From IMG/VR virus record IMGVR_UViG_3300037400_004242: a stretch of DNA of 64,000 nucleotides; one strand, written 5' to 3'. A program made the translations under genes and the position numbers. The notes below the pieces were generated by a model. It was not told the origin of the DNA, ran no database searches, and was given only the letters and a program-made list of their open reading frames with translations. This DNA is from a virus. Taxonomy: Duplodnaviria > Caudoviricetes. The first letter of the stretch is position 1. Every line of letters begins with the position of its first letter. Below, piece after piece: positions 3,860 through 43,817 of the stretch.

Positions 3860-6800
3860 ATGGCAGATAATGATGATGCGAAGAAAAAACAACAAGCAGA
3901 ACAAGAAAGTCAGGATGCAATACAATCTGCTTATGGTCGTGCAAGTCAAGCGGCGCAAAATGGCGGCACTTATATGACTGGTGTTTTTTCAACAAATGGA
4001 ACTGCTGAATTTGATGCAGGACGAGATATTTTAACGGGTGCAGATTTTAAAAAATATGAACATCCAGAGCGTCTTGTTGGAACACAAATGCAATATGCGA
4101 ATACCGGAAATATTCGTGTTGTAAATTTTAAACAAGATTATGTTGTTTTAATTCGCAAGAAATTATTTTATGCGGCAAATTCAGCAGGGAATATTGAAAA
4201 AGATAATGCTGAAATGTCTGATGGTAATTATGTTCGCACTTATAAATTAGATAATTGGACGAGTATTCGTACTAATATTAGTATTTCAGGTACGCCAGGA
4301 AATTGTCAGATAGATTTGCAAGGTGGGGAATGGGTTTTATGTTATGAAGAAACATCTTTAACAAATCGTGGCAAACCAATTGTAACATCAGAATATAATG
4401 GTTATGTAAGTGATGAATTTCCAAACAATAATGCTCAATTACAAAATGATTCAAGCAATAATTTTGAAAATACGCAAACACAACAAAATGACCCATCAAC
4501 ACAAGTAGAACATGGTGTTGCTACAGTTAATGATGCTATTGCAAATAATATTTGGAATCGCTCAGGCGTTCATCCATATCTAGAACAGTATCGTGGTATT
4601 ACATATGATACAAAAGCAAATCCAGATGGTAAAACAGGTACTGTTACAATGACAGATACAGATGGTACGGTACGTAAATTTACTTTACCGATGGATAATA
4701 CAAAACGTGATGAAAATATTTTAAATATTGGACAAAATTGTGAATCTGGTTATAAAATAGCAGAAAAATGCGATTGGGAACCAATGGATGAAGTTTGGAT
4801 TTATGGGAAATCAAACTTTGAACGTGATAGTAAATATAGCAATAGTGATTTTAAAATGAATCAAATTTTCTTTGGATACATTGATAATGTAACAAAGACT
4901 TATTTGAGTGGTAAATCCGCAGGATGTACCATTTCAATTACTGCTACAGACCAATTAAAATTATTAGATTTATCATATGTTACAATGAATCCATCTATGA
5001 CACCAGGTGCATCAGGTGTTGGAGGTATAGATTTACGTTATTCAAAACAAGATACTAGTCATTTTGGTACGTTTCGTTTATACAATCCATACTCTGTTAT
5101 GCAACAAATGGGATTGTTTGGTAGTGCAGAAGATGCTAAAAAAGCGCAAGAAGAGACATTAAACAACTCTTGGGAATTTCAAACATTAGCTAATATTTTT
5201 GGTGGAAAACCGATTGCTGAAATTATTAAACAGTTATGTTTAGATGCAGGTGTCCCAACTTGGTATTTAAAACAGCGTATAGAACCAATTCAATATCCAC
5301 CATTTGTGTATTCGTATAAACAATCAAATTCTTCCATGTTATTTAATGGAAGTATGATGAAACGATTGAATGAATGTCAAACAGCGGCAAGGAAATTATT
5401 ATTAGAATTTTTTGCAGACGAAGCAGGAAATATTGTTTTAAAATGCCCAAATTTTGCATTGGGTGTAAATTCAAAAGTAAAAAATAATATGGGATTTGCA
5501 GAATCTTGTTCTGCGATGATGAATATTGATATTGATAATATTCAACCATATTATGCAATTAATGAAACAAAAATAGATAATGCAAAATTGCAACATGCAT
5601 CACAAGAAGACTTAGATATTTTAAATAACACAAGTCATTCCACAAATGTTGACCAATGTAACCAATATAAAAGAGTAAAAGCCGCAGAAGAAATAGTAAA
5701 AGGTTCTAATTTAACAATGGCAGAAGCCGCAGATAAATTAAGCGGTTTAACGGAAACAAATCCACAATATACATTTATGAAACAATATACAACATACACA
5801 GATGATTATGGTAGTGGAGACAACGGTCCGATTTCTGTTTCTGTGCAAGCACCTGATACATTTGTAAGTTTGGCAGAAAGATATTTGGGCAAAAATAGTG
5901 ATGCATATTTAGATATTTATGACCAAGCATGTTCCCAGTTTAATACTGACGGAAAGCAAATTATTAAAGATATTAATGATTGCCAAGCTATTTATGGTCA
6001 GACATTAATTATTCGTAGAAATCGTTTATATGATAATCAAAATAAAACATGGTTAGGAAATTCCGACCAATTACGTGATGATTTAATTACAAAATATGGC
6101 GAAGACGAAAGTACATGGTACAAACAAGCAGAAGCAGAAGATAAAAAACAAGTTCAAAAACGTAAAGAAACACAAGAAAAATATATGCAACAAGTGCAGA
6201 AACAATATTCAGGGACATTATCAGAAATGACAGATAGTTTAATCCCTGAAATTCCGCAGGAATTTATATTGTCTTTTAGTTTAACAGATTCCGATAAACA
6301 GATTTATAATATGTATGAAGTTAATATTGAAGGAGACTTTGGAATCTTTGATAAAGGCGGACCGCTTCAAAAAATCTGTCGTGTATTTCCTGATATAGCT
6401 TCTATGATTCGCTTCGGTTGCCGTCCGAATCCTACGGTATACAATTTTCCATATATGGGGAATAAAGAAAATGCGCATTTATTAGGATTTATGTTATGTG
6501 CGATGTCATTAGCAAGAAGAAATTCAGCAACTTTAAGTATGATTGAAGATTCTTCTATTCATGTAGGCGACCCGATTCGTTTCTTCGCTTATGATGAACA
6601 TCCTGATGTTCCTTTATCAGAACAAAAAGGAGATAGAGGTCAATTTGAATCTGTACTAAATTCTATGGCTCGTACTTCTAAGGATTTGGAAACACAAACG
6701 ATGGAAACATTGTCTGGTTTTGAACAATTTGCCGTAGAAAAGGAGCAAGAAAAAGTAGAAGGTGGAAACTATACACCTTATAGGGAGAAAGACACGGGGA

Positions 6801-21751: not shown

Positions 21752-22981
21752 ATGAGTGTAATAGATAAAATAGTAAAATATCGAATTCCGAAAAAAGGAA
21801 AATATAAATATGCATTTGATTCGTATAAAAAATCTCCTGAAGATAAATATGTTTTTATTAATCAAAGAGAATTGGTAAAAATTGTAACTGACGAAATTAA
21901 GTTTGATATAGAATGTATTTGTGATAAATGCGGGAAACATTTTACAAGAAGATTAGGATTACTAGAATTAGATAGAATTTATTGTCAGATATGTATTACA
22001 AAAGATACGAATCAAAAACGTTATGGTGTTGATGTTCCGATTCAAAATAAAAAGATTTATGAAAAAATAAAAAATACAATGATAGAAAGATATGGAGTAG
22101 ATAATTCCATGAAATCTCCTGAAGTACGAAAGAAATCACAGGAAACATTAATGAAAAATTATGGTGTAGAACATCCATCACAAAGTAAAGAAATTCAAGA
22201 GAGAACGAAAAAGACGTTTTTAAAAAAGTATGGCGTAGAATGTTCTTTACAGAATGAAAAAGTAAAAGAAAAAGCGAAGAAAACATTAATAGAAAAATAT
22301 GGTGTAGATAATTCAATGAAAGCTCCTGAAGTTCAAGAAAAATTTCGGAAAACAATGCAAGAACGTTATGGAGTAAATTATGTTTTTGAAAATGATACTT
22401 TATATGGAAAAGCAAAGCAAACCATGTTAGAAAAATATGGTTATGAATTTGCGATTAAGAATAAAGAAATTCAAGAAAAACAAAAGATAACATGTTTAAA
22501 ACATTTTGGAGTAGAATATCCTGCACAAAGTAAAGAAGTATTGAAACGGCAAGAAGAAACAAATTTAAAAAAATATGGATATAAGCATCCATTAGATTTA
22601 GCAAAAAATCGTGGATATATTAGTATTGAAAATATTCGATGTGCTTGTTCAAAACAACAAAAACATATTGCAGAATTAATTCATGGAGAAATTAATGTTC
22701 CTGTTGGAAGATATATTTTAGATATTGTTGTAGATAATATAAATATTGAATATGATGGTGGTGGACATCGTTTAAATGTAAAATTTGGCGTATTAACAAA
22801 CGAAGAATTTGATAAACAAGAAAATAAAAGAAATCAATGGATAATTCATAAAGGATATAAGGTAATTCGGATTATTTGTCCAAGGGATAAAATTCCTGAA
22901 GATGATATTATTTTAAAACAATTGAAAGAAGCTAGAGAAAAATTAAAAAAAGAAAATATAATATACATTACATGGGATTAA
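21752..22981 (+). CDS. Free-standing homing-type endonuclease: zinc ribbon, about 9 (K/R)YGV repeats and a C-terminal PD-(D/E)XK/DUF559-like domain
   Basis: Two CxxC pairs, ~23-aa YGV repeats, LDIVVDNINIEYDGGGH and GYKVIRI. Confidence 0.7.
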   Translation: MSVIDKIVKYRIPKKGKYKYAFDSYKKSPEDKYVFINQRELVKIVTDEIKFDIECICDKCGKHFTRRLGLLELDRIYCQICITKDTNQKRYGVDVPIQNKKIYEKIKNTMIERYGVDNSMKSPEVRKKSQETLMKNYGVEHPSQSKEIQERTKKTFLKKYGVECSLQNEKVKEKAKKTLIEKYGVDNSMKAPEVQEKFRKTMQERYGVNYVFENDTLYGKAKQTMLEKYGYEFAIKNKEIQEKQKITCLKHFGVEYPAQSKEVLKRQEETNLKKYGYKHPLDLAKNRGYISIENIRCACSKQQKHIAELIHGEINVPVGRYILDIVVDNINIEYDGGGHRLNVKFGVLTNEEFDKQENKRNQWIIHKGYKVIRIICPRDKIPEDDIILKQLKEAREKLKKENIIYITWD

Positions 22982-23083: not shown

Positions 23084-26000
23084 TTGTTGGACAACTTTGA
23101 AAAATTCTCCAATTATGATAAACGTTCAAGTTATCAGCAAGTCCGTTTTGGACATGATAAGCCAATTCTAGAAACAGAATTGAATGAAATACAACAATTA
23201 CAGACAGATGCTAGATTAGATATTGTTAACAAACATGTATATAGTGGTTTTACAGAACTTGTTACAAAAGGATTTAATGGAGAACCAATTGTTTATAATC
23301 CTTCATCGAATGGATTACTTTTAACAAACAAAATTGCAATTGCTCCATTTACTGCAAATATCATGGGATATACAGTTCATGGAAGCGGAAATTTTACATA
23401 TAACAAAATTGATAATTATATTTTAGTAGATTTAGGTGAAGTCGCGAAAAAAGCGATGTACGACAGCTTAGTATATCTTGAAGTTTGGTTCGAGATTGAA
23501 AAAGGTGAACAATCTGCTAAAAAATTCGGATATTCCATGGGTGATACGATTGGTACACCTGCAAAAGACAAACGTGTTGGTGATGAAACTTCTCGTAGAC
23601 TTGCTTTATGTTGGAATATTTGTGTAAAGAATGAATGTGATTTTGATAATTATCCTGAAGGATTAGGATACAATGACATTTTTCATTATTCTCATGTATT
23701 TGCAAAAGCAAATGGGCAGTTAGGAAATGATTCTAATGTAAATATAAGTTTCAGCGAAGCAACAAATGATATGTTCCGTGCTGAAAAATTCCATCATGAT
23801 AAAAATTTGTATGTAGCAGGTAGACCAACATATGAAATTGATTCATCTACATTGTATGGAAAATATGTTTATGCATTACCAATGTTTCGTATTCGTAGAA
23901 GAAACAAAGTACCATATGATATAACGAATTTTAATGGTTCTTCTTCTTATAATAAAATGGTAGTCAACAATGACACATCAGAAAAAGGAGATTTGCTTGC
24001 AGGATTCAGGCCGGATAGATTGGCATATGATATGATTGATGTAAATGATGTTATGGATATTCGTAAATCTGTTTGCTATGCGGATTATAATGAAAATAGT
24101 ATGGCAGATGATACAATTCGTGCATTATTTAATAATCAATTAACAACACGTCAAACAAAAAAGATGCGTCGTATTCAATTTGGTAATAAAGAAATTCCAT
24201 TTGATAAAATTGATAATGCTACTTTTTCTGTTCCATTTAATAAAAGTGTAAAAGATAAAATTCCCGGTGGTTGTACAACAGAAAACGCATTAGTAAGATA
24301 TGAAGATTCCATTTGTGGAATGGGTGCAGTTTTTGAAAATAGCAATTATGTATTGTATGATATTAATAAATCAAGTGCAGAATTATTAAATCGTGATAAA
24401 GGTTCCATTGATTTTTACTTTAAGCCATTTTGGAATGGTTCTGATGAAGATATTGACCAAGAAATTATGTCTTTAGTAGATGGTGGGAAACATCCAATTT
24501 GGAAATTTGAGAAAAAAGGATTGAAATTAATCTTAACACATTATGATACTTTTAGTGCAGTAACTGTATCAGGAAAAAGCAATTTAGTACAAGAAACAAA
24601 ATGTGAGATTAATTTGTCACAAGATTTAATAAAAGCAAATCAATATTACTACATTCGTATTTCATGGACAAACAAACCAATGCCTTTAAATGGTATGGCA
24701 TATGTTTATATTAATAGTATCATGAAAGCACAAATGGAAATCCCAAAATGTAAACTGACGGCGCAGTATTTAAAAGTTGGTGGCGTAGCTAATTCAAATA
24801 AAGGATTCTTGATTAGCAATTTAATAGGTTATAAAAAGAATTTTGAATTGCTTATGATGGAAGGTTCCAAATATGGATATGCAAAAAATAAGTTCTGGCC
24901 TATGTTGCCAAAAGACTTTATGTATTCAGATACATTACTGATGCCTGGATTTAATGGAATTGTAAATAATTATGGTGATGATTCTTTCACACAAGTACAA
25001 ATGACATTGGAACTTGCTCCATATTCTACAACAGCAGGAAAAAGATTTAAATTTGAAGTTTCTTCTGATAAAAAAATTGTTAGTATAGATAAAGTATATA
25101 ATTATGAAAATGATAAACTTTATATTTATCAAACAAATTACGATGTTATCATTGATGATGTTGCAACAAATAACCAAGCTGGTGAAATTATTCATTATGG
25201 TAGTGTTGCAGAAGTTGTATTCCAGAATACATATGCCGCAGTCAAGAAAATTGTTATAGAAGCTACGATTCAATTAAGTACAGGTTGTGGTGGTCAAGAT
25301 ATAGCAACAGAAGTATTAGGCGCAGCGATGATGAAATATGACGATGAAGATGATAACTATTATTATCCACTTCGTATGACAGAAGAAGTTTCGTTTAATG
25401 CAAAAGGTGCTTATCCTAGACAGATACCTTGGTTAAAACCCAGGAAAGTTAATGGAGAAGAAGATAAAGCATATGATGTTTCTAATCAGTTGCGTTCACA
25501 GTATCAATGCTATGCGAGATTGATATATTATAATGTATCAGGTAATGGTACGGCAGAATATAAAATTCCAATAAATGTATATGGATACAATGTTATTGGT
25601 GTTATTGGATGCAGTAGTATTGGCAAAATTAAAAATGTATATCGTACACCATCAGAAATTCCTGATGAACCTGAAAATGAAATTACGGTTATGTTAGAGA
25701 CACCATTACTTGTAGGTGAAACAATTACATTTGAATTAGCAACAAGTGGTTTCTCATTTGATTACGAATTAAATTCAAAGACATTGATGACAGATATGTA
25801 TCAATGCAAGAATTTAGTGTTTTTAACAGATGGTAAAAATAGCAAATTTACAAAACCATGTATGTCAAATAGCGATGAATATTTGCATGGTGGAATTTTG
25901 AAGTCTGTTATGACATTTATAGATTCTGATGGTAATAAACATTTTCAATGCTATGAAGACAGTATGATATTCTATAATGAATATGGTGAAGTTATTGAAA

Positions 26001-26737
26001 ATAAAAAACGTTTAAATGCTCGTGAGATTAAAGTTTCAGGATTTGGTACGCCATTTATTACGGTAGATTTAGGTAAGATATATCCAATGGGAACGAGAAT
26101 CGAAGTTCCAATTATGACAACATATCAGCCATTAAAATCTGATATTCTTTCTGTTTGGTATAATTATATTCCATATCAAGGAAACATGACAAATGCTCGT
26201 CAAACAGTAAAACGTATTACAGATTGGCATTATTTTATTACAACATTAGGTACAGGTAAAAATGATAAAGATGTAATTTATAGAAATGTTGTAAATAATT
26301 TGCCTGGTGGTTTAACTTATGGATATAAGATGGATAATAAAGATATTGTTGTAAAATATGCAAAAAATAATATGACAAATACATTGAGCAACATTAATAA
26401 ACAACTTGTATTTTTGAATAACTTTATGCTAGAATATAACAAAGATTTTAGTAATTTGGCTTCAGAATATAAAGTAAAGAAAAATTGTGCATGTTTCCAA
26501 GATGGAGAATTGAAATTCTTAAATGTAGATTTTAGTTTATATTTTGATGATTTGGTAAATCCAATTAATAAATATGTAGGTGCTTATTGTGTTGTTGTTA
26601 CAGATACAGGAGAACTTATGGTTATGGTAATCGGTAATTTCGATGAAACAGCAACAGCAATTAATCATTTACATCCTACATATGGAGATTTGTATCGCAT
26701 TAAAGGCAGACCAACAACAGTACGTAATAGCGACTAA
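23084..26737 (+). CDS. Large baseplate/tail-fibre protein with a LamG/concanavalin-like domain
   Basis: N-terminal domain paralogous to 18784. GSIDFYFKPFW..YYYIRISW..VYINS is a LamG-like pattern. Confidence 0.6.
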   Translation: MLDNFEKFSNYDKRSSYQQVRFGHDKPILETELNEIQQLQTDARLDIVNKHVYSGFTELVTKGFNGEPIVYNPSSNGLLLTNKIAIAPFTANIMGYTVHGSGNFTYNKIDNYILVDLGEVAKKAMYDSLVYLEVWFEIEKGEQSAKKFGYSMGDTIGTPAKDKRVGDETSRRLALCWNICVKNECDFDNYPEGLGYNDIFHYSHVFAKANGQLGNDSNVNISFSEATNDMFRAEKFHHDKNLYVAGRPTYEIDSSTLYGKYVYALPMFRIRRRNKVPYDITNFNGSSSYNKMVVNNDTSEKGDLLAGFRPDRLAYDMIDVNDVMDIRKSVCYADYNENSMADDTIRALFNNQLTTRQTKKMRRIQFGNKEIPFDKIDNATFSVPFNKSVKDKIPGGCTTENALVRYEDSICGMGAVFENSNYVLYDINKSSAELLNRDKGSIDFYFKPFWNGSDEDIDQEIMSLVDGGKHPIWKFEKKGLKLILTHYDTFSAVTVSGKSNLVQETKCEINLSQDLIKANQYYYIRISWTNKPMPLNGMAYVYINSIMKAQMEIPKCKLTAQYLKVGGVANSNKGFLISNLIGYKKNFELLMMEGSKYGYAKNKFWPMLPKDFMYSDTLLMPGFNGIVNNYGDDSFTQVQMTLELAPYSTTAGKRFKFEVSSDKKIVSIDKVYNYENDKLYIYQTNYDVIIDDVATNNQAGEIIHYGSVAEVVFQNTYAAVKKIVIEATIQLSTGCGGQDIATEVLGAAMMKYDDEDDNYYYPLRMTEEVSFNAKGAYPRQIPWLKPRKVNGEEDKAYDVSNQLRSQYQCYARLIYYNVSGNGTAEYKIPINVYGYNVIGVIGCSSIGKIKNVYRTPSEIPDEPENEITVMLETPLLVGETITFELATSGFSFDYELNSKTLMTDMYQCKNLVFLTDGKNSKFTKPCMSNSDEYLHGGILKSVMTFIDSDGNKHFQCYEDSMIFYNEYGEVIENKKRLNAREIKVSGFGTPFITVDLGKIYPMGTRIEVPIMTTYQPLKSDILSVWYNYIPYQGNMTNARQTVKRITDWHYFITTLGTGKNDKDVIYRNVVNNLPGGLTYGYKMDNKDIVVKYAKNNMTNTLSNINKQLVFLNNFMLEYNKDFSNLASEYKVKKNCACFQDGELKFLNVDFSLYFDDLVNPINKYVGAYCVVVTDTGELMVMVIGNFDETATAINHLHPTYGDLYRIKGRPTTVRNSD

Positions 26738-26744
26738 AAAACTG

Positions 26745-26774
26745 TTGACAAAACAACATGATATAAGATATAAT
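26745..26774 (+). promoter_or_regulatory. SigmaA-type promoter TTGACA-N18-TATAAT, overlapping a hairpin (26770-26807), upstream of the omega RNA
   Basis: Perfect -35 at 26745-50 and perfect -10 at 26769-74. Confidence 0.65.
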
Positions 26775-26810
26775 AGGTGTAAAGATTATTTTGCACCTAT
26801 TATTTTTAGG

Positions 26811-27127
26811 ACTAATCGTTAAGTACCCAAAAACATACGCAAGTGTGTTTAAACATACTTAAAAGTGGACACCAAGTCTTTTAAGCACGGCTAAACGATT
26901 GGTTTCAAGCCCAAGTGACTACGGGTGAGGAAACTTGCTTCGTAGGATGAACTAAGTCAGGTAGCAAGGCAAAAACGCACCTTCGGATGTACCTTCAGTC
27001 TGTCGCTCTGTGAAAGCCAACCAAGAAACACGGCTAATGTCCTGCCGTGATAACAGGGAAACTCATGTCCTCTACCCGACCTCGGCAAGAAGGAAAATTC
27101 CCGTCTTTGACGGTGTTGGCAGAGATG
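26811..27127 (+). ncRNA. IscB-type omega RNA (HEARO family) scaffold with no iscB ORF
   Basis: GC-rich non-coding island. Stems: ACTAATCGTT/AACGATTGGT, GCAA- and GAAA-capped hairpins, GTCAGGTAG/CTACCCGAC and CACGGC/GCCGTG. Motifs GGTTTCAAGCC.AAGTGA, CACCTTCGGATGTA..TTCAGTC..GCTCTGTG, GCCAACCAAGAAAC..GCTAATGTCCTGC..GATAACAGGGAAAC and GGCAAGAAG match my recollection of Firmicute iscB leaders. Confidence 0.8.
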
Positions 27128-27130
27128 CCC

Positions 27131-27166
27131 GTGGAATACCGCCCCTATTTGGGGCGGTATTCCATG
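27131..27166. repeat. GC-rich palindrome (possible element end or terminator)
   Basis: TGGAATACCGCCCC-TATTT-GGGGCGGTATTCCA. Confidence 0.75.
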
Positions 27167-27241
27167 TATTTGTTAGTTAAAATGTGCTTTAGATGCACTT
27201 TTAAGTATATTTGTCTATGTTTTTAGAAGGAGGAATAGCAA

Positions 27242-27499
27242 ATGGCATTTGCAGATAATAATAACTCTCTTTATGATGTTGTTATGAAACAGAGCGATAC
27301 AAAAGAAACAAAATTTTCGTTGTTGGAGAATAAAAAAAGTGGAGCACTTCGTGCAAGTATTCGTGATTTTACACATACAGAATCATATGATGGTCCAACG
27401 CGAAATGGCATGATGTTTCAATTGAATACAATTGCGGATGTAGAGAAATATCAGAAAACCTTTAATGAATTTTTTGATAAAATTAAAGAATTTTTCTGA
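27242..27499 (+). CDS. PC4/YdbC-like ssDNA-binding protein
   Basis: SIRDF..GPTRNGMM matches the PC4-family DIR..PTxKG pattern; 85 aa; strong SD. Confidence 0.6.
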   Translation: MAFADNNNSLYDVVMKQSDTKETKFSLLENKKSGALRASIRDFTHTESYDGPTRNGMMFQLNTIADVEKYQKTFNEFFDKIKEFF

Positions 27500-27504
27500 A
27501 AAAA

Positions 27505-27536
27505 AGAAGGTCAAAGATATAAGTCTTTGACCTTTT
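27505..27536 (+). terminator. Intrinsic terminator
   Basis: Stem AAGGTCAAAGAT / GTCTTTGACCTT. Confidence 0.6.
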
Positions 27537-27562
27537 GTGTTCATAAGGAGGATTATTTGTAA

Positions 27563-27940
27563 ATGCCTAGGCGTAAGTTAACAGAAGCAGAAAAAATAGA
27601 AAAAGATAAAAAATTAGTTTATCAAAAATTAATAAATAATGAATTGGTATCTATTAAAGATTTGGCAAAGTTGTTACAAAAACGTTCATGCACTATTCGG
27701 AAATGGGAAGAGAAGGGAATTGTACAAAAACCTGCAAAGATTGACCCAATTCGCATGTATACTTATGATGAACTTGCAAAATTTTTACATGATTTAATTA
27801 ATCATGAATGGAAATATAAGACAATAGATATGGATGAAATAAAGTCTATTTTAAAATATTTGGATTCTTTAGTAGAAGTAAATCATGTAAAGCGACGTGT
27901 GATAAAAAAAGACCCATATTCATTTGATGGGATATATTAA
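27563..27940 (+). CDS. MerR-like helix-turn-helix DNA-binding protein
   Basis: SIKDLAKLL..TIRKWEEKG..RMYTYDEL. Confidence 0.7.
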   Translation: MPRRKLTEAEKIEKDKKLVYQKLINNELVSIKDLAKLLQKRSCTIRKWEEKGIVQKPAKIDPIRMYTYDELAKFLHDLINHEWKYKTIDMDEIKSILKYLDSLVEVNHVKRRVIKKDPYSFDGIY

Positions 27941-27958
27941 AAGGAGAAACAAAGAGAA

Positions 27959-30415
27959 ATGGTGCAATTAGATTTAGATAATGTATATTTAAAAATTACA
28001 GGATTAGAAAAAGATGAAGAAATGAAATTATGGAATCTTCTTTCTTTTCCTGTACAAGTTTTCGGTATGCAAGAAGTTCGTTATCGACATTTATATAATC
28101 GTAAAACAAAGAAAACATACGCTGGTTTACTAGAGTATGTGGAAGGACATCTGAAAGATAGGAACATTAAATATATATTAAAGGATAATCGTATAAAGCC
28201 GCAACAAAATGCTAATTTCAAATTAGTGGATTATATTGATAATGAAAAGAAAATTCCATTGAAACTTAGACCATATCAGCAAGATATAGTAGATAAGTGT
28301 AGAGAACGAGAAGTAATACAAGCAGCTACTGGAGCAGGAAAAGCATTACCATTAGATACAGATATTCTTACTCCAAACGGATTTGTTAAAATGCGTGATA
28401 TTCATGTTGGTTCTGTTGTTTATGATGAAAATGGAGAAAAAACAAGTGTAATTGCAGAATTTCCACAAAACGAATTGAAACAAGAATATAAAATTACATT
28501 TAATGATGGTAGTTATGTGATTTGTTGTAAGGAACATCTATGGAAATATGATGTTAAAACCAATCTCAAACATCATAGATGGAAAGTGAATAATATTGTT
28601 GATATTATTAACAAATATGGATTAAAAAAGAGTAGGTCATTAAATATATATATTCCTGTATGTAAACCAATTCAATTTGATAAAAAAGAATTGCTTATTC
28701 CACCATATTTAATGGGTGCATTACTTGGTGATGGGGGTTTTACACAGAATACAATTTCTTTTACTAATGTTGAAAAAGATATTATTGATAAAGTCAATTT
28801 ATTGGTTTCAACATGGGGTGTTTTTAAACATAAGAAAAATAAAAGCCATCCACAACTACATTTTGTTGGTGGTGAAAATAATTTATTTAAAAAATATATA
28901 GAAAATACGTTTCACCATGCAAATTCAAAAACAAAATTTATTCCAAATGAATATAAAATGAGTTCTATCGAAGATAGATTAGAATTAATTCGTGGATTAA
29001 TTGATACTGATGGTTCCATAAATGAAAAGGGACATATAAAAATTGGCTTTGTTAGTGAACAATTAGCAAAAGATTTGCAATTTGTTCTTCAAAGTCTAGG
29101 CTATCGTTCTAAAATGACGATTGACAAAAGAAAAGGAAGAAATGATACGTATAATTTATATATACGTGGTTGTGATGATAAATTATTTTCTTCAATAAAG
29201 CATAAAGAAAGATTTAAACATCATAAAGTAGCAAAAAATCATTACTACGACATTTTAAAAATTGTTTCAGTAGAACCATTAGATAAAAAATCAGAAATGA
29301 AATGTATTACAGTTGATAGTCCTTTACATACATATATTTGTAAAGACTTTATTGTAACACACAATACATTGATGATGGCAGGATGTATTGCCAAATTTAA
29401 TGTAAAACCTGTTTGCATTTTTGCAGATAAAATAGGATTATGTCAACAATTGAAACAAGAAATGGAAAAATTTCTTGGTGTTGAAGTTGGTTTGGTCGGT
29501 GATGGTCATGAAGACTATAAAGATATTACAGTTATTTCTGTACAATCTGCCGATGAAAAGTATATCCAAAAAGCACAAATGTGTTTGTGGGACGAATGTC
29601 ACCATGTGCCAGCTCATACAATAGTTTCTATAGCGAACAAATGCACACAGGCATATTACAGGGTTGGCGTTTCTGCAACACCTTGGCGTGATGCAGGTGA
29701 TGACTTGCTTATTGAAGCAGTTTTAAATAAAAAGAAAGATGCTATTATTTCTGCATCAAAATTAATTGAATTAGGATATTTAATTAAACCAGATATTTAT
29801 TTTGTACCAATTAAACAAGTTTTTAAAGGAAAAAATTATCAAGATATTTATAAAAAAGCAATTGTAGAAAATATAGATAGAAATAAAATTGTTTGCAAAA
29901 TAGCTTATAATATGTTTATTCGTAATAAACATGTGTTAATTCTTTATAAAAATATTGCGCATGGAGAAACTTTACGTGATATGATGGAAAAAAGATTAAA
30001 TGCAAAGGCAACGCCAATTACTGTTAACCATCCAGTTACAGGAAAAGAACAAACAATTCGTGTAAAACCTGTAGAATTACTTTCAGGAAATGATGATACG
30101 TTAAAACGTGTCGCAGTTTTTGAAGCAGTTAAGAGAGGAATTTGCCGTTGTTTAATTGCATCAACAATTGCTGATGAAGGATTAGATTTGCCTATCTTAG
30201 ATACTTTAATTCTTGCTGGTGGTGGTAAATCTTCAACGAGAGCTTTTCAACGTGTCGGACGTGTATTAAGGCTTCATGAAGGTAAAACAAAAGCGATTGT
30301 TTTTGATTTTACAGATTATACGCCTATGTTACGTAGACATTCAAGAAATAGACAAAAATATTATGAACAGGAACCTATGTGGGATATTCATAAATTTAAT
30401 GTGAATCCAGATTAA
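27959..30415 (+). CDS. Superfamily 2 (UvsW/XPB-like) DNA helicase with an intein in Walker A
   Basis: LRPYQ, ATGAGK|intein|T, DECHH, SATP, EGLDLP and QRVGRVLR. Confidence 0.9.
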   Translation: MVQLDLDNVYLKITGLEKDEEMKLWNLLSFPVQVFGMQEVRYRHLYNRKTKKTYAGLLEYVEGHLKDRNIKYILKDNRIKPQQNANFKLVDYIDNEKKIPLKLRPYQQDIVDKCREREVIQAATGAGKALPLDTDILTPNGFVKMRDIHVGSVVYDENGEKTSVIAEFPQNELKQEYKITFNDGSYVICCKEHLWKYDVKTNLKHHRWKVNNIVDIINKYGLKKSRSLNIYIPVCKPIQFDKKELLIPPYLMGALLGDGGFTQNTISFTNVEKDIIDKVNLLVSTWGVFKHKKNKSHPQLHFVGGENNLFKKYIENTFHHANSKTKFIPNEYKMSSIEDRLELIRGLIDTDGSINEKGHIKIGFVSEQLAKDLQFVLQSLGYRSKMTIDKRKGRNDTYNLYIRGCDDKLFSSIKHKERFKHHKVAKNHYYDILKIVSVEPLDKKSEMKCITVDSPLHTYICKDFIVTHNTLMMAGCIAKFNVKPVCIFADKIGLCQQLKQEMEKFLGVEVGLVGDGHEDYKDITVISVQSADEKYIQKAQMCLWDECHHVPAHTIVSIANKCTQAYYRVGVSATPWRDAGDDLLIEAVLNKKKDAIISASKLIELGYLIKPDIYFVPIKQVFKGKNYQDIYKKAIVENIDRNKIVCKIAYNMFIRNKHVLILYKNIAHGETLRDMMEKRLNAKATPITVNHPVTGKEQTIRVKPVELLSGNDDTLKRVAVFEAVKRGICRCLIASTIADEGLDLPILDTLILAGGGKSSTRAFQRVGRVLRLHEGKTKAIVFDFTDYTPMLRRHSRNRQKYYEQEPMWDIHKFNVNPD
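28343..29365 (+). mobile_element. 341-aa intein with a LAGLIDADG endonuclease; Ala1 and WCT triplet (class 3 type)
   Basis: Starts ALPLDTDILTPNGF and ends FIVTHN|T. Endonuclease motifs MGALLGDG and IRGLIDTDG. Block B HLW, block F KCITV, block G VTHN. Confidence 0.9.
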
Positions 30416-33924: not shown

Positions 33925-34779
33925 ATGAGTATAGGAATTTATAAAATAGAGAATTTAGTAAATCACAAAGTATATATTGGACAAAGCATTAATATTGAAC
34001 GAAGAAAATATTCACATAAAAATGATTTAAAAAGAAATTGCCAACATAATAAATTAATGCAACAAGATTTTAATTTATATGGAATAGAAAATTTTTCTTT
34101 TGAAATATTAGAATTATGTGCGAAAAATAAATTAAATGAAAGAGAACAATTTTATATTCAAAAATATCAATCTGATATTCAAGGATATAATTATACAATA
34201 GGTGGTAAATACACAAAAGAAACTAAATTAATGGAAAAAAGTTTAAGATTATCTTCTTATAATTTGCATCAAGCGCATCTTATAAAATATGCATTATATA
34301 TGGATATGGATAGAGAAGAAATAAGTAAAATGTTTCATATTTCTATAAATGTGCTATATAATATTCATCATTATGTATGGTTTTATAAAATTAATTTAAA
34401 AATGAATTATTATATAATTCATAGAAATGAAATTTTGCTATCCATTAGGAATCATAAAATGAGAAAAATGTTTGCATGTGGATATGCTGTATATGATATT
34501 TTAAAGAAATATCATGTGACAATGATGCCTAAAATCTATGAAATAGACAAAAGAAATCGTGACAATAAATTAAAATTTCAAACAAAATTAATTAAAAATT
34601 ATAGTTTGTTTTTAAAGAAAAGATATACATTAAAACATATATCAAAAATATTAAAAATAAATTATAAAACTTTGTTAAAAATATTAAATCATAATTTTGT
34701 ATTAACACCAAAATATGTGAATTATGATATAAAAAATATAATACATGGAAGTGATAAACATGAGTATTGGAATTTATAA
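33925..34779 (+). CDS. GIY-YIG homing endonuclease
   Basis: GIYKIENLVNHKVYIGQS..R..H..HN..E..GYN. Confidence 0.85.
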   Translation: MSIGIYKIENLVNHKVYIGQSINIERRKYSHKNDLKRNCQHNKLMQQDFNLYGIENFSFEILELCAKNKLNEREQFYIQKYQSDIQGYNYTIGGKYTKETKLMEKSLRLSSYNLHQAHLIKYALYMDMDREEISKMFHISINVLYNIHHYVWFYKINLKMNYYIIHRNEILLSIRNHKMRKMFACGYAVYDILKKYHVTMMPKIYEIDKRNRDNKLKFQTKLIKNYSLFLKKRYTLKHISKILKINYKTLLKILNHNFVLTPKYVNYDIKNIIHGSDKHEYWNL

Positions 34780-35314
34780 AATTGAAAATTTAGTAAATCA
34801 TAAGGTATATATTGGACAAAGTAAAAATATAGAACGAAGATTTCGTGAACATAGATATGCTTTAAAACATCATAAACACCATAATCCATTATTGCAACAA
34901 GATTATAATGATGGACATAAATTTTCATATCAAATTGTAGAAATTTGTTGTGTTCATGAATTAAATGAAAAAGAAAAAATTTGGATAAGTTTTTATCGTT
35001 CTAATATTATCGGATATAATTATGATGATGGTGGAATAAACAATAAGAAATATAATGAACATTTTCAGTCATATTTTAAAAGTCATTCAAATAATCCTAG
35101 AAAGATTGCAAAAGCAAGAAGCAAATATGATGAAGGAACAATTCGTAAAGTAAAACTTGCGTTATATATGGATATGGACAAACATGCTATTGCAGAATTG
35201 TTCCATGTAGAGTATGATTATGTACATAGACTAACATATAGAACAATGCATTATGCGGAGAGAATCTTATCACAATTAAACGATTACATTAAAAAGGTAC
35301 GAAGATATGGATAA
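34760..35314 (+). CDS. GIY-YIG homing endonuclease, second tandem paralogue; start more likely 34760 than 34745
   Basis: The first 21 aa are identical to the upstream copy when started at ATG 34760. Confidence 0.85.
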   Translation: MSIGIYKIENLVNHKVYIGQSKNIERRFREHRYALKHHKHHNPLLQQDYNDGHKFSYQIVEICCVHELNEKEKIWISFYRSNIIGYNYDDGGINNKKYNEHFQSYFKSHSNNPRKIAKARSKYDEGTIRKVKLALYMDMDKHAIAELFHVEYDYVHRLTYRTMHYAERILSQLNDYIKKVRRYG

Positions 35315-43283: not shown

Positions 43284-43817
43284 ATGGCAGAGTTATGGAT
43301 TGCTATGGATATAGATGATGAATATGCAAAAAATCAGTTGGCATATTATCAAACTCTTTTAAAACAAAAAACACATGGTGATTGGGAAGACCCAAATGAT
43401 TTTCATATTACAATAGATTATATTGGAGAAAATGAAGATAATTTTGAAAAAGTTGTAGACGCTATGAAATTATATCAAAAAGAAACTGATGTCTTTAATC
43501 AATATGTTTTTGGAAATCATATTCGTAGATTTGATGGGGGAGCACTCTGGATAGGAGTTGACGAATCTTTTAAATTGTATAAAATCCATTATCGTTTGGA
43601 AGAACTTTTAGACCAAGTTGGGTATGTAAAAGCTCCTAGTAAATTTCCAAATTATACACCACATATTACAATGGCATTTAATACTCCAAAAATAGATTAT
43701 GAAATTAAAATGAACAAAATACCAATTCCTGTTACAAACATTACATTATGGAACTCTTTTAAAGTTAATGGAGAATATGTTGATAACGTTTTATATAAAA
43801 TCAATTTAATTAAATGA
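43284..43817 (+). CDS. 2H phosphoesterase (LigT/ThpR-like)
   Basis: Two HxT motifs: FHITID and PHITMA. Confidence 0.85.
   Translation: MAELWIAMDIDDEYAKNQLAYYQTLLKQKTHGDWEDPNDFHITIDYIGENEDNFEKVVDAMKLYQKETDVFNQYVFGNHIRRFDGGALWIGVDESFKLYKIHYRLEELLDQVGYVKAPSKFPNYTPHITMAFNTPKIDYEIKMNKIPIPVTNITLWNSFKVNGEYVDNVLYKINLIK

Follow-up and report, generated by a model that had tools for sequence, protein, structure and literature searches.

ISC elements form the IscB-carrying branch within the IS200/IS605 superfamily. Described ISC transposons (Kapitonov et al. 2016, PMC4810608) and PATEs insert precisely on the 5′ side of a short motif, on the iscB-sense strand and without target duplication; they take their guide from the flanking DNA, and they need both transcription from outside and a transposase supplied in trans. 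The phage element presented here resembles them in each of these respects. Among PATEs, protein-less forms with an omega RNA gene have been described (Meers et al. 2023, PMC10055086), and our element is likewise a protein-less derivative, one that appears to retain both ends. Those PATEs are mostly TnpB-linked and chromosomal, however, whereas ours is of IscB type, occupies the leader of a jumbo-phage operon, targets a Shine–Dalgarno sequence and has gained a terminator-like hairpin at its deletion junction.

Two further systems are close to this locus. Stand-alone omega RNAs function with IscB, according to Altae-Tran et al. 2021 as cited in Hirano et al. 2022 (PMC9581776), and like our locus they have no adjacent iscB and carry their own 5′ guide. 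By that cited account they come from genomes with many IscB loci and their activity was shown, whereas the present element has no IscB in view and only a proposed activity. HfmIscB-2, from a human faecal metagenome, has a scaffold given as starting AGGACTAAT in the supplementary material of Kannan et al. 2025 (PMC13180657), and its structure is deposited as HfmIscB (PDB 9k2z). The RNA described here is of the same omega RNA family, with the same AGGACTAAT start and the GGTTTCAAGCC-AGTGACT core, but it has no iscB and belongs to a diverged sub-lineage (87% identical to the IscB-linked copies L106 and L061, ∼76% to copies of the L009 type).

The window analysed is a 64-kb stretch from a giant rumen phage of the Caudoviricetes (IMG/VR record IMGVR_UViG_3300037400_004242). 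Its positions 26808–27227 (plus strand, 420 nt) very probably hold a non-autonomous, protein-less ISC derivative of the HfmIscB-2/L106 lineage, whose home is gut, rumen and staphylococcal phages. In order along the plus strand the element consists of an intact IscB omega RNA scaffold of divergent HEARO type (26808–27124), recognized by homology, HEARO match and kept pairs; a relic of the iscB start codon (27125–27127); a 16-bp GC hairpin and then TATTTGTT (27130–27166), apparently filler at a deletion junction; and the degenerate final codons of iscB with the iscB-distal transposon end (27167–27227). The best explanation of the locus as a whole, to which we give a probability of about 0.6, is an IscB-less ISC mini-element whose omega RNA is used in trans. 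That the RNA of this particular copy is actually so used is a more tentative proposition, argued by analogy and somewhat short of an even bet.

A first-pass annotation of the letters had marked 26745–27166 for a GC-rich, heavily paired non-coding island behind a promoter and had suggested, as one of two options, a non-autonomous IS200/IS605-type element. The island is real: GC content is 0.41–0.49 at 26800–27199 and 0.24–0.33 in the flanks, and the region folds at a minimum free energy of −125.7 kcal/mol (z = −4.15), which none of 100 shuffles equalled. No long ORF crosses it, and the element has no coding capacity beyond one frame of 33 codons. The element type also holds, given that sequence homologous to both ends is kept and that a near-identical phage has the site empty. 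The extent needed redrawing, as the annotated span adds the flanking promoter and misses the last 61 nt.

That the RNA is an IscB omega RNA, as first annotated, follows from its homology to RNAs directly 5′ of genes for IscB (RRXRR+HNH) and from a fold backed by covariation. A blastn search of phage records gave four homologues, two in Staphylococcus Baoshanvirus phages and two in human faecal phage records; the Staphylococcus phage matches lie directly 5′ of a 411-aa RRXRR+HNH protein, that is, an IscB. A 20-nt core motif occurs in 12 viral contigs, with a full-length iscB starting ∼223 nt downstream in 10 of them; the other two are limited by contig ends, L019 showing iscB codons 1–116 only and L017 none. 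The same motif is present at 69 metagenome loci and 15 genome loci. Over 294 nt the window omega RNA is 87.4% identical to those of L061 and L106, both of which are followed by iscB, and its identity is 76% to the L009-type copies of gut phages and 68% to the Staphylococcus phage copies. Each of these omega RNAs ends at the ATG of a co-oriented iscB. The viral contig L106 carries a complete element, comprising omega RNA, a 412-aa IscB and the 3′ end, and its IscB matches HfmIscB (PDB 9k2z) at E = 8e-170, a similarity that assigns it to the characterised HfmIscB lineage. Within the window nhmmer finds the omega RNA as a single copy (E = 3e-88), with no second one.

The same IscB/omega RNA lineage also occurs in Erysipelotrichales, at L030 (Sharpea azabuensis DSM 18934), L026 (Coprobacillaceae) and L033 (an Erysipelothrix MAG). 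These carriers, one of them a rumen species, hint at the host range of the phages and at a possible host source of IscB.

At gathering thresholds Rfam has zero matches in the whole window. With thresholds relaxed, the only sensible match is HEARO (RF02033), at 26868–27100 with 19.5 bits (E = 0.047), so that the covariance-model check proposed at first pass gives a hit over all 211 model positions, but one well under the gathering score of 83 bits. The IscB-linked relatives are sub-threshold too (L002 32.3, L106 29.1 and L009 24.3 bits). Because bona fide IscB-linked members of the lineage fail the threshold, it does not discriminate here, and because they reach only 24–32 bits, the low score of the window copy is no argument against membership. 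A cut-off of 15 bits, combined with context, was applied by Meers et al. 2023 (PMC10055086). The GAUG...CAGUC...GCUCUG core and the pseudoknot arms of HEARO are present; the family extends ∼60 nt further 5′ and ∼25 nt further 3′ than the Rfam model. A retron ncRNA, a tracrRNA, a group I intron and a riboswitch were rejected as identities; Rfam supports none of them, and the RNA is directly homologous to those of IscB.

Covariation was assessed in an alignment of 13 copies with a consensus of 75 pairs. Two-sided changes occur in 37 of these pairs, as against 15.5 ± 2.6 in shuffled alignments, none of 500 of which reached that number; controls in which the partners were slid by 1–3 columns had 4–10 two-sided pairs. 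Across the alignment 96.7% of cells are paired. The window copy keeps 70 of the 75 pairs; of the five that it breaks, the IscB-linked L061 breaks four as well, so that just one break is unique to the window. Compared with L061 it also has five two-sided changes that preserve pairing. Judged by these pairs the window scaffold shows no decay, although its intactness may simply reflect a recent deletion. The motif CCGTC-TTT-GACGG had been taken for a hairpin replacing the ribosome-binding site of iscB. It is in fact the stem-loop that ends the omega RNA, a conserved feature maintained here through compensatory changes, but the loss is correctly noted: the GGAGG-like ribosome-binding site in the 3′ arm of this stem-loop is gone from the window.

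The RNA ends at GAGATG, as had been noted, and the ATG at 27125–27127 aligns with the iscB start codons of 12 IscB-linked relatives. The 33-codon frame that opens there has no IscB similarity by tblastn, in keeping with the earlier statement that no nuclease gene follows. At the other end of the element, window positions 27168–27234 are 80.6% identical over 67 nt to L106 positions 4216–4282, which hold the iscB 3′ end plus the element end, and 19 family members align with this stretch at their 3′ ends. What remains of iscB is thus the ATG and about eight last codons, degenerate. Both element ends are homologous to those of L106, with a stem in the 5′ end and a small hairpin (ATGTGC...GCAC) in the 3′ end. 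Read from these alignments, the deletion took iscB from codon 2 to about codon 404 (∼400 codons), with the GC hairpin now in place of them, and left the omega RNA gene complete and, apparently, the two transposon ends as well.

The palindrome that had been seen directly after the ATG is indeed a hairpin of 16 pairs, 10 of them G–C, with a T-rich tail. It is missing from the full-length cognate L106, and no further copies of it were found in the window or in viral contigs. A search for closer relatives with the window-specific 37-nt pattern matched nothing in viral contigs. In form the hairpin resembles an intrinsic terminator, at which transcription of the omega RNA would stop. It may lower expression of the replication operon downstream, which would be a cost of the insertion and not its function.

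The ends of the element are fixed by a relative with an empty site, the kind of phage that the first-pass annotation had suggested looking for to define the ends and the TAM (target-adjacent motif). This relative, G001 (IMGVR_UViG_3300028048_001492), matches window positions 26000–26811 at 99% and 27228–28000 at 100%. The two matching pieces abut in G001 with a 4-nt overlap, giving an insert of 420 nt beside AGGAGG and an exact empty site, TTTTT|AGGAGG. The mini-element is polymorphic between near-identical phages. The empty site reads ...TATTATTTTT AGGA GGAATAGC, or seen from the guide side ...TGCACCTATTATTTTT AGGA GGAATAGCAAATGG; the left junction in the window is ...TATTATTTTT|AGGACTAATCG and the right junction ...GTTTTTAGA|AGGAGGAATAGC. 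There is no target-site duplication beyond the 4-nt AGGA ambiguity. That ambiguity allows an alternative register, 26812–27231 (target AGGA|GG), with AGGA at both junctions. We set it aside in favour of a start at 26808, since every family member and the published scaffold start at AGGACT and since the TAM RNRRRD fits AGGAGG and not AGGACT. The AGGAGG at 27228–27233 (plus strand) then serves both as target/TAM and as Shine–Dalgarno sequence of the next gene, and it is present once at the empty site. One IMG metagenome, 3300028048, is the source of G001, of the full cognate L106 and of another relative, L109.

Family homology starts exactly at AGGACT, and the sequence upstream differs at each insertion site. 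The guide segment, TGCACCTATTATTTTT, is best placed in the 16 nt of phage flank directly 5′ of the scaffold (26792–26807, plus strand); the string proposed earlier ran 3 nt into the scaffold. In G001 the 16 nt are followed by AGGAGG, so the expected match of the guide to the empty allele of a related phage is there. The window has one exact copy of the guide and no extra match beyond chance.

The target recurs across the family. About 20 independent insertions, including the right junctions of L001–L104, have AGGAG(G/A/T), or in one case AGGGG, at the iscB-distal end, and a start codon stands 5–10 nt past the AGGAG motif. With this arrangement at ∼20 distinct sites, the lineage inserts exactly 5′ of Shine–Dalgarno sequences. 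Supplementary Table 1 of Kannan et al. 2025 (PMC13180657) lists the in vitro TAM of HfmIscB-2 as RNRRRD; AGGAG(G/A/T) fits this motif yet is much more specific. The element itself opens with AGGAC, five nucleotides similar to the target that may be read as a transposon-encoded motif. In a limited literature search we found no description of a Shine–Dalgarno insertion preference in a phage IscB lineage, and the preference is possibly new. The element is otherwise ordinary, given that protein-less IS200/IS605 derivatives and stand-alone omega RNAs have already been described.

Upstream of the element lies a phage promoter of sigma-70 type (26745–26774, plus strand), with its −35 box TTGACA at 26745–26750 and its −10 box TATAAT at 26769–26774. 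It matches the consensus at 12 of 12 positions and has an 18-nt spacer. The first-pass annotation had credited the RNA with a perfect promoter of its own. Perfect it is, but it is phage DNA: it is also found at the empty site in G001/L107, and L108, whose neighbouring protein is only 64% identical, has TTGACT-N17-TATAAT, so the promoter belongs to the phage and not to the element. We infer a start site near 26781, which would give a 27-nt leader (26781–26807) with the guide. The operon driven by this promoter comprises an 85-aa ORF (27242–27499, ATG at 27242), a MerR-like gene and a helicase, and the element sits in the 5′ leader of this replication operon, directly upstream of AGGAGG. Meers et al. 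2023 (PMC10055086) report that IscB omega RNAs rely on external transcription and that insertions favour transcribed surroundings in the same orientation; the window copy, 27 nt downstream of the putative start, would fit this pattern well.

IS200/IS605-type insertions seem to concentrate in this promoter leader. In L109 a second element of ∼370 nt (4910–5330) lies between the −35 and −10 boxes of the orthologous promoter; it is GC-rich, has a 13-codon ORF and ends in GGATGTCAA, which is like a TnpB-type (IS605) end.

The position between promoter and operon Shine–Dalgarno sequence, together with a 16-bp hairpin and T-rich tail that the full-length cognate does not have, could be taken for a regulatory insertion, that is, a structured leader or terminator attenuating the operon of the 85-aa ORF, the MerR-like protein and the helicase. 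Against this, the nearest relative and L108 manage without the element, and full-length family members stand in like positions with no terminator. A variant of this idea, raised at first pass, is that the RNA acts as a decoy for host IscB. No role in anti-phage defence is known for IscB, which leaves a decoy without a known target, and nothing speaks for the idea. Of the explanations considered we hold regulation or decoy to be the least probable, at the far end of the scale.

The guide and promoter also bear on a reading in which the phage has domesticated the RNA as a weapon: the guide RNA and an IscB borrowed from the host or a rival would destroy relatives that have the empty allele, and the outcome would be exclusion, not homing. 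The guide and AGGAGG do match the empty allele of G001 exactly, a contig with the cognate IscB comes from the same metagenome, and a strong, conserved promoter with a terminator-like hairpin would yield a discrete, abundant RNA. The match, however, is there by construction, because the guide is the insertion flank, as in every ISC element, and the promoter is older than the insertion. Retargeted or multiplied guides were not seen, and the absence of the element in the nearest relative goes against a fixed, selected phage function. For domestication as such, which the first-pass annotation had offered as an option, we found nothing that speaks, and we consider this reading very improbable, if slightly less so than regulation.

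The partners of a mobile omega RNA are missing from the sequences searched. The 64-kb window has no IscB by tblastn, and neither TnpA nor TnpB was found in it; a Pfam scan of 10 window ORFs turned up no Y1 transposase. The 41.7-kb relative G001 likewise has no IscB, TnpA or TnpB and no RRXRR match, and the two faecal phage records that carry mini-elements have no IscB. In G002, a related jumbo-phage record, the only IscB is 32% identical, is of another lineage and has an unrelated omega RNA; being of an unrelated lineage, it lends no support to use in trans. In the L109 record an IscB of an unrelated lineage lies 25 kb away. That the cognate omega RNAs are only 87% identical to that of the window is also counted against trans use.

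The window has further content of mobile or homing type, namely a free-standing GIY-YIG endonuclease gene (34745–35314) and a DUF7487 protein (21752–22981). At 43284–43817 it encodes a 177-aa 2H-phosphoesterase (LigT / 2′-5′ RNA ligase family) with a weak, sub-threshold match to Acb1 (anti-CBASS).

The absence of nuclease and transposase from the window and G001 is what an inert relic would show. On this account a full-length element was inserted or inherited, its iscB was lost by illegitimate deletion, and the RNA, which the phage promoter would still produce, is now partnerless and without effect and will decay or be excised. The lost iscB ribosome-binding site is consistent with such a history. 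So is the polymorphism of the allele between phages that are 99–100% identical, which marks the event as recent, such that an intact scaffold needs no selection. The next stage of decay is seen at the same site in L109, a 67%-identical relative. There the element is down to 91 nt, which correspond to the first ∼47 and last ∼45 nt of an L106-type element, and since nearly all of the omega RNA is lost there, its loss is evidently tolerated.

Other nuclease-less forms weigh against the relic. An L009-type sub-lineage carries a single in-frame iscB deletion, in which amino acids 1–22 are fused to 383–413, at no fewer than three sites. Three copies of this mini-element stand in one 301-kb contig, and at one of its sites other contigs have a full-length iscB. 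One form at three sites in one genome indicates that mini-elements can still move or be copied. The L009-type mini-elements keep 75 of 75 pairs, and the window scaffold has the single uniquely broken pair in 75 relative to its IscB-linked cognates. In the lineage at least five separate deletions of iscB stop inside codons 1–48 and leave the entire omega RNA in place; this count is biased by the search motif, which lies inside the omega RNA. We rank an inert recent relic close behind use in trans and regard it as unlikely, though far less so than domestication or regulation.

Two observations on these relatives may be added. The gut-phage mini-elements keep a 44-codon ORF with a ribosome-binding site, made up of IscB amino acids 1–22 (the start of the PLMP region) and 383–413; copies are in L003 (4322–4456) and L004 (4319–4453) and also in L059, L066, L076, L089, L094 and L104. 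In L046 a full-length element stands between the left flank of one insertion site and the right flank of a different one (compare L051, L004 and L003). This combination points to recombination of two copies of the element within a phage genome, in which the intervening DNA was lost.

For the preferred reading, a mini-element with an omega RNA used in trans, a mechanism can be inferred from established family behaviour. The strong phage promoter, 34 nt upstream of the element, would start transcription near 26781. The transcript would consist of the 27-nt leader, of which the last 16 nt are the guide, and the scaffold, and it would end at the hairpin near 27166–27176. This RNA would act only with a cognate IscB in the same cell, which might be supplied by a full-length element elsewhere in the ∼500-kb genome, by a co-infecting phage or by the host. 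The complex would cut the unoccupied allele, in which AGGAGG comes after the guide match, as it does in G001, and would spare the occupied allele, in which AGGACT comes after it. The own locus would be spared because AGGACT fails the TAM RNRRRD at position 5. Repair from the occupied copy would then retain or spread the element, while a Y1 transposase (TnpA) acting in trans would be required for the element to reach new sites.

A broader proposal is that omega RNA elements without a nuclease persist in giant phages of the gut and rumen as guide-only parasites or weapons. Placed behind strong phage promoters at ribosome-binding sites, they would cut relatives that have no insert, with an IscB borrowed from the host or from a co-infecting phage. 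We put this proposal forward as speculation with the odds well against it. If it were true, guide-only elements would home into such relatives or would exclude them from mixed infections.

Placement at Shine–Dalgarno sequences would ensure that the leaders are transcribed and the guide is made while genes remain unbroken, and precise insertion 5′ of this signal may be a new target preference for a phage IscB lineage. A single phage locus is moreover seen in three states: empty (G001, L108), omega-RNA-only (the window) and ends-only (L109). With this allelic series, a full-length cognate and the solved, active HfmIscB-2, the use of an orphan omega RNA in trans becomes testable with defined parts.
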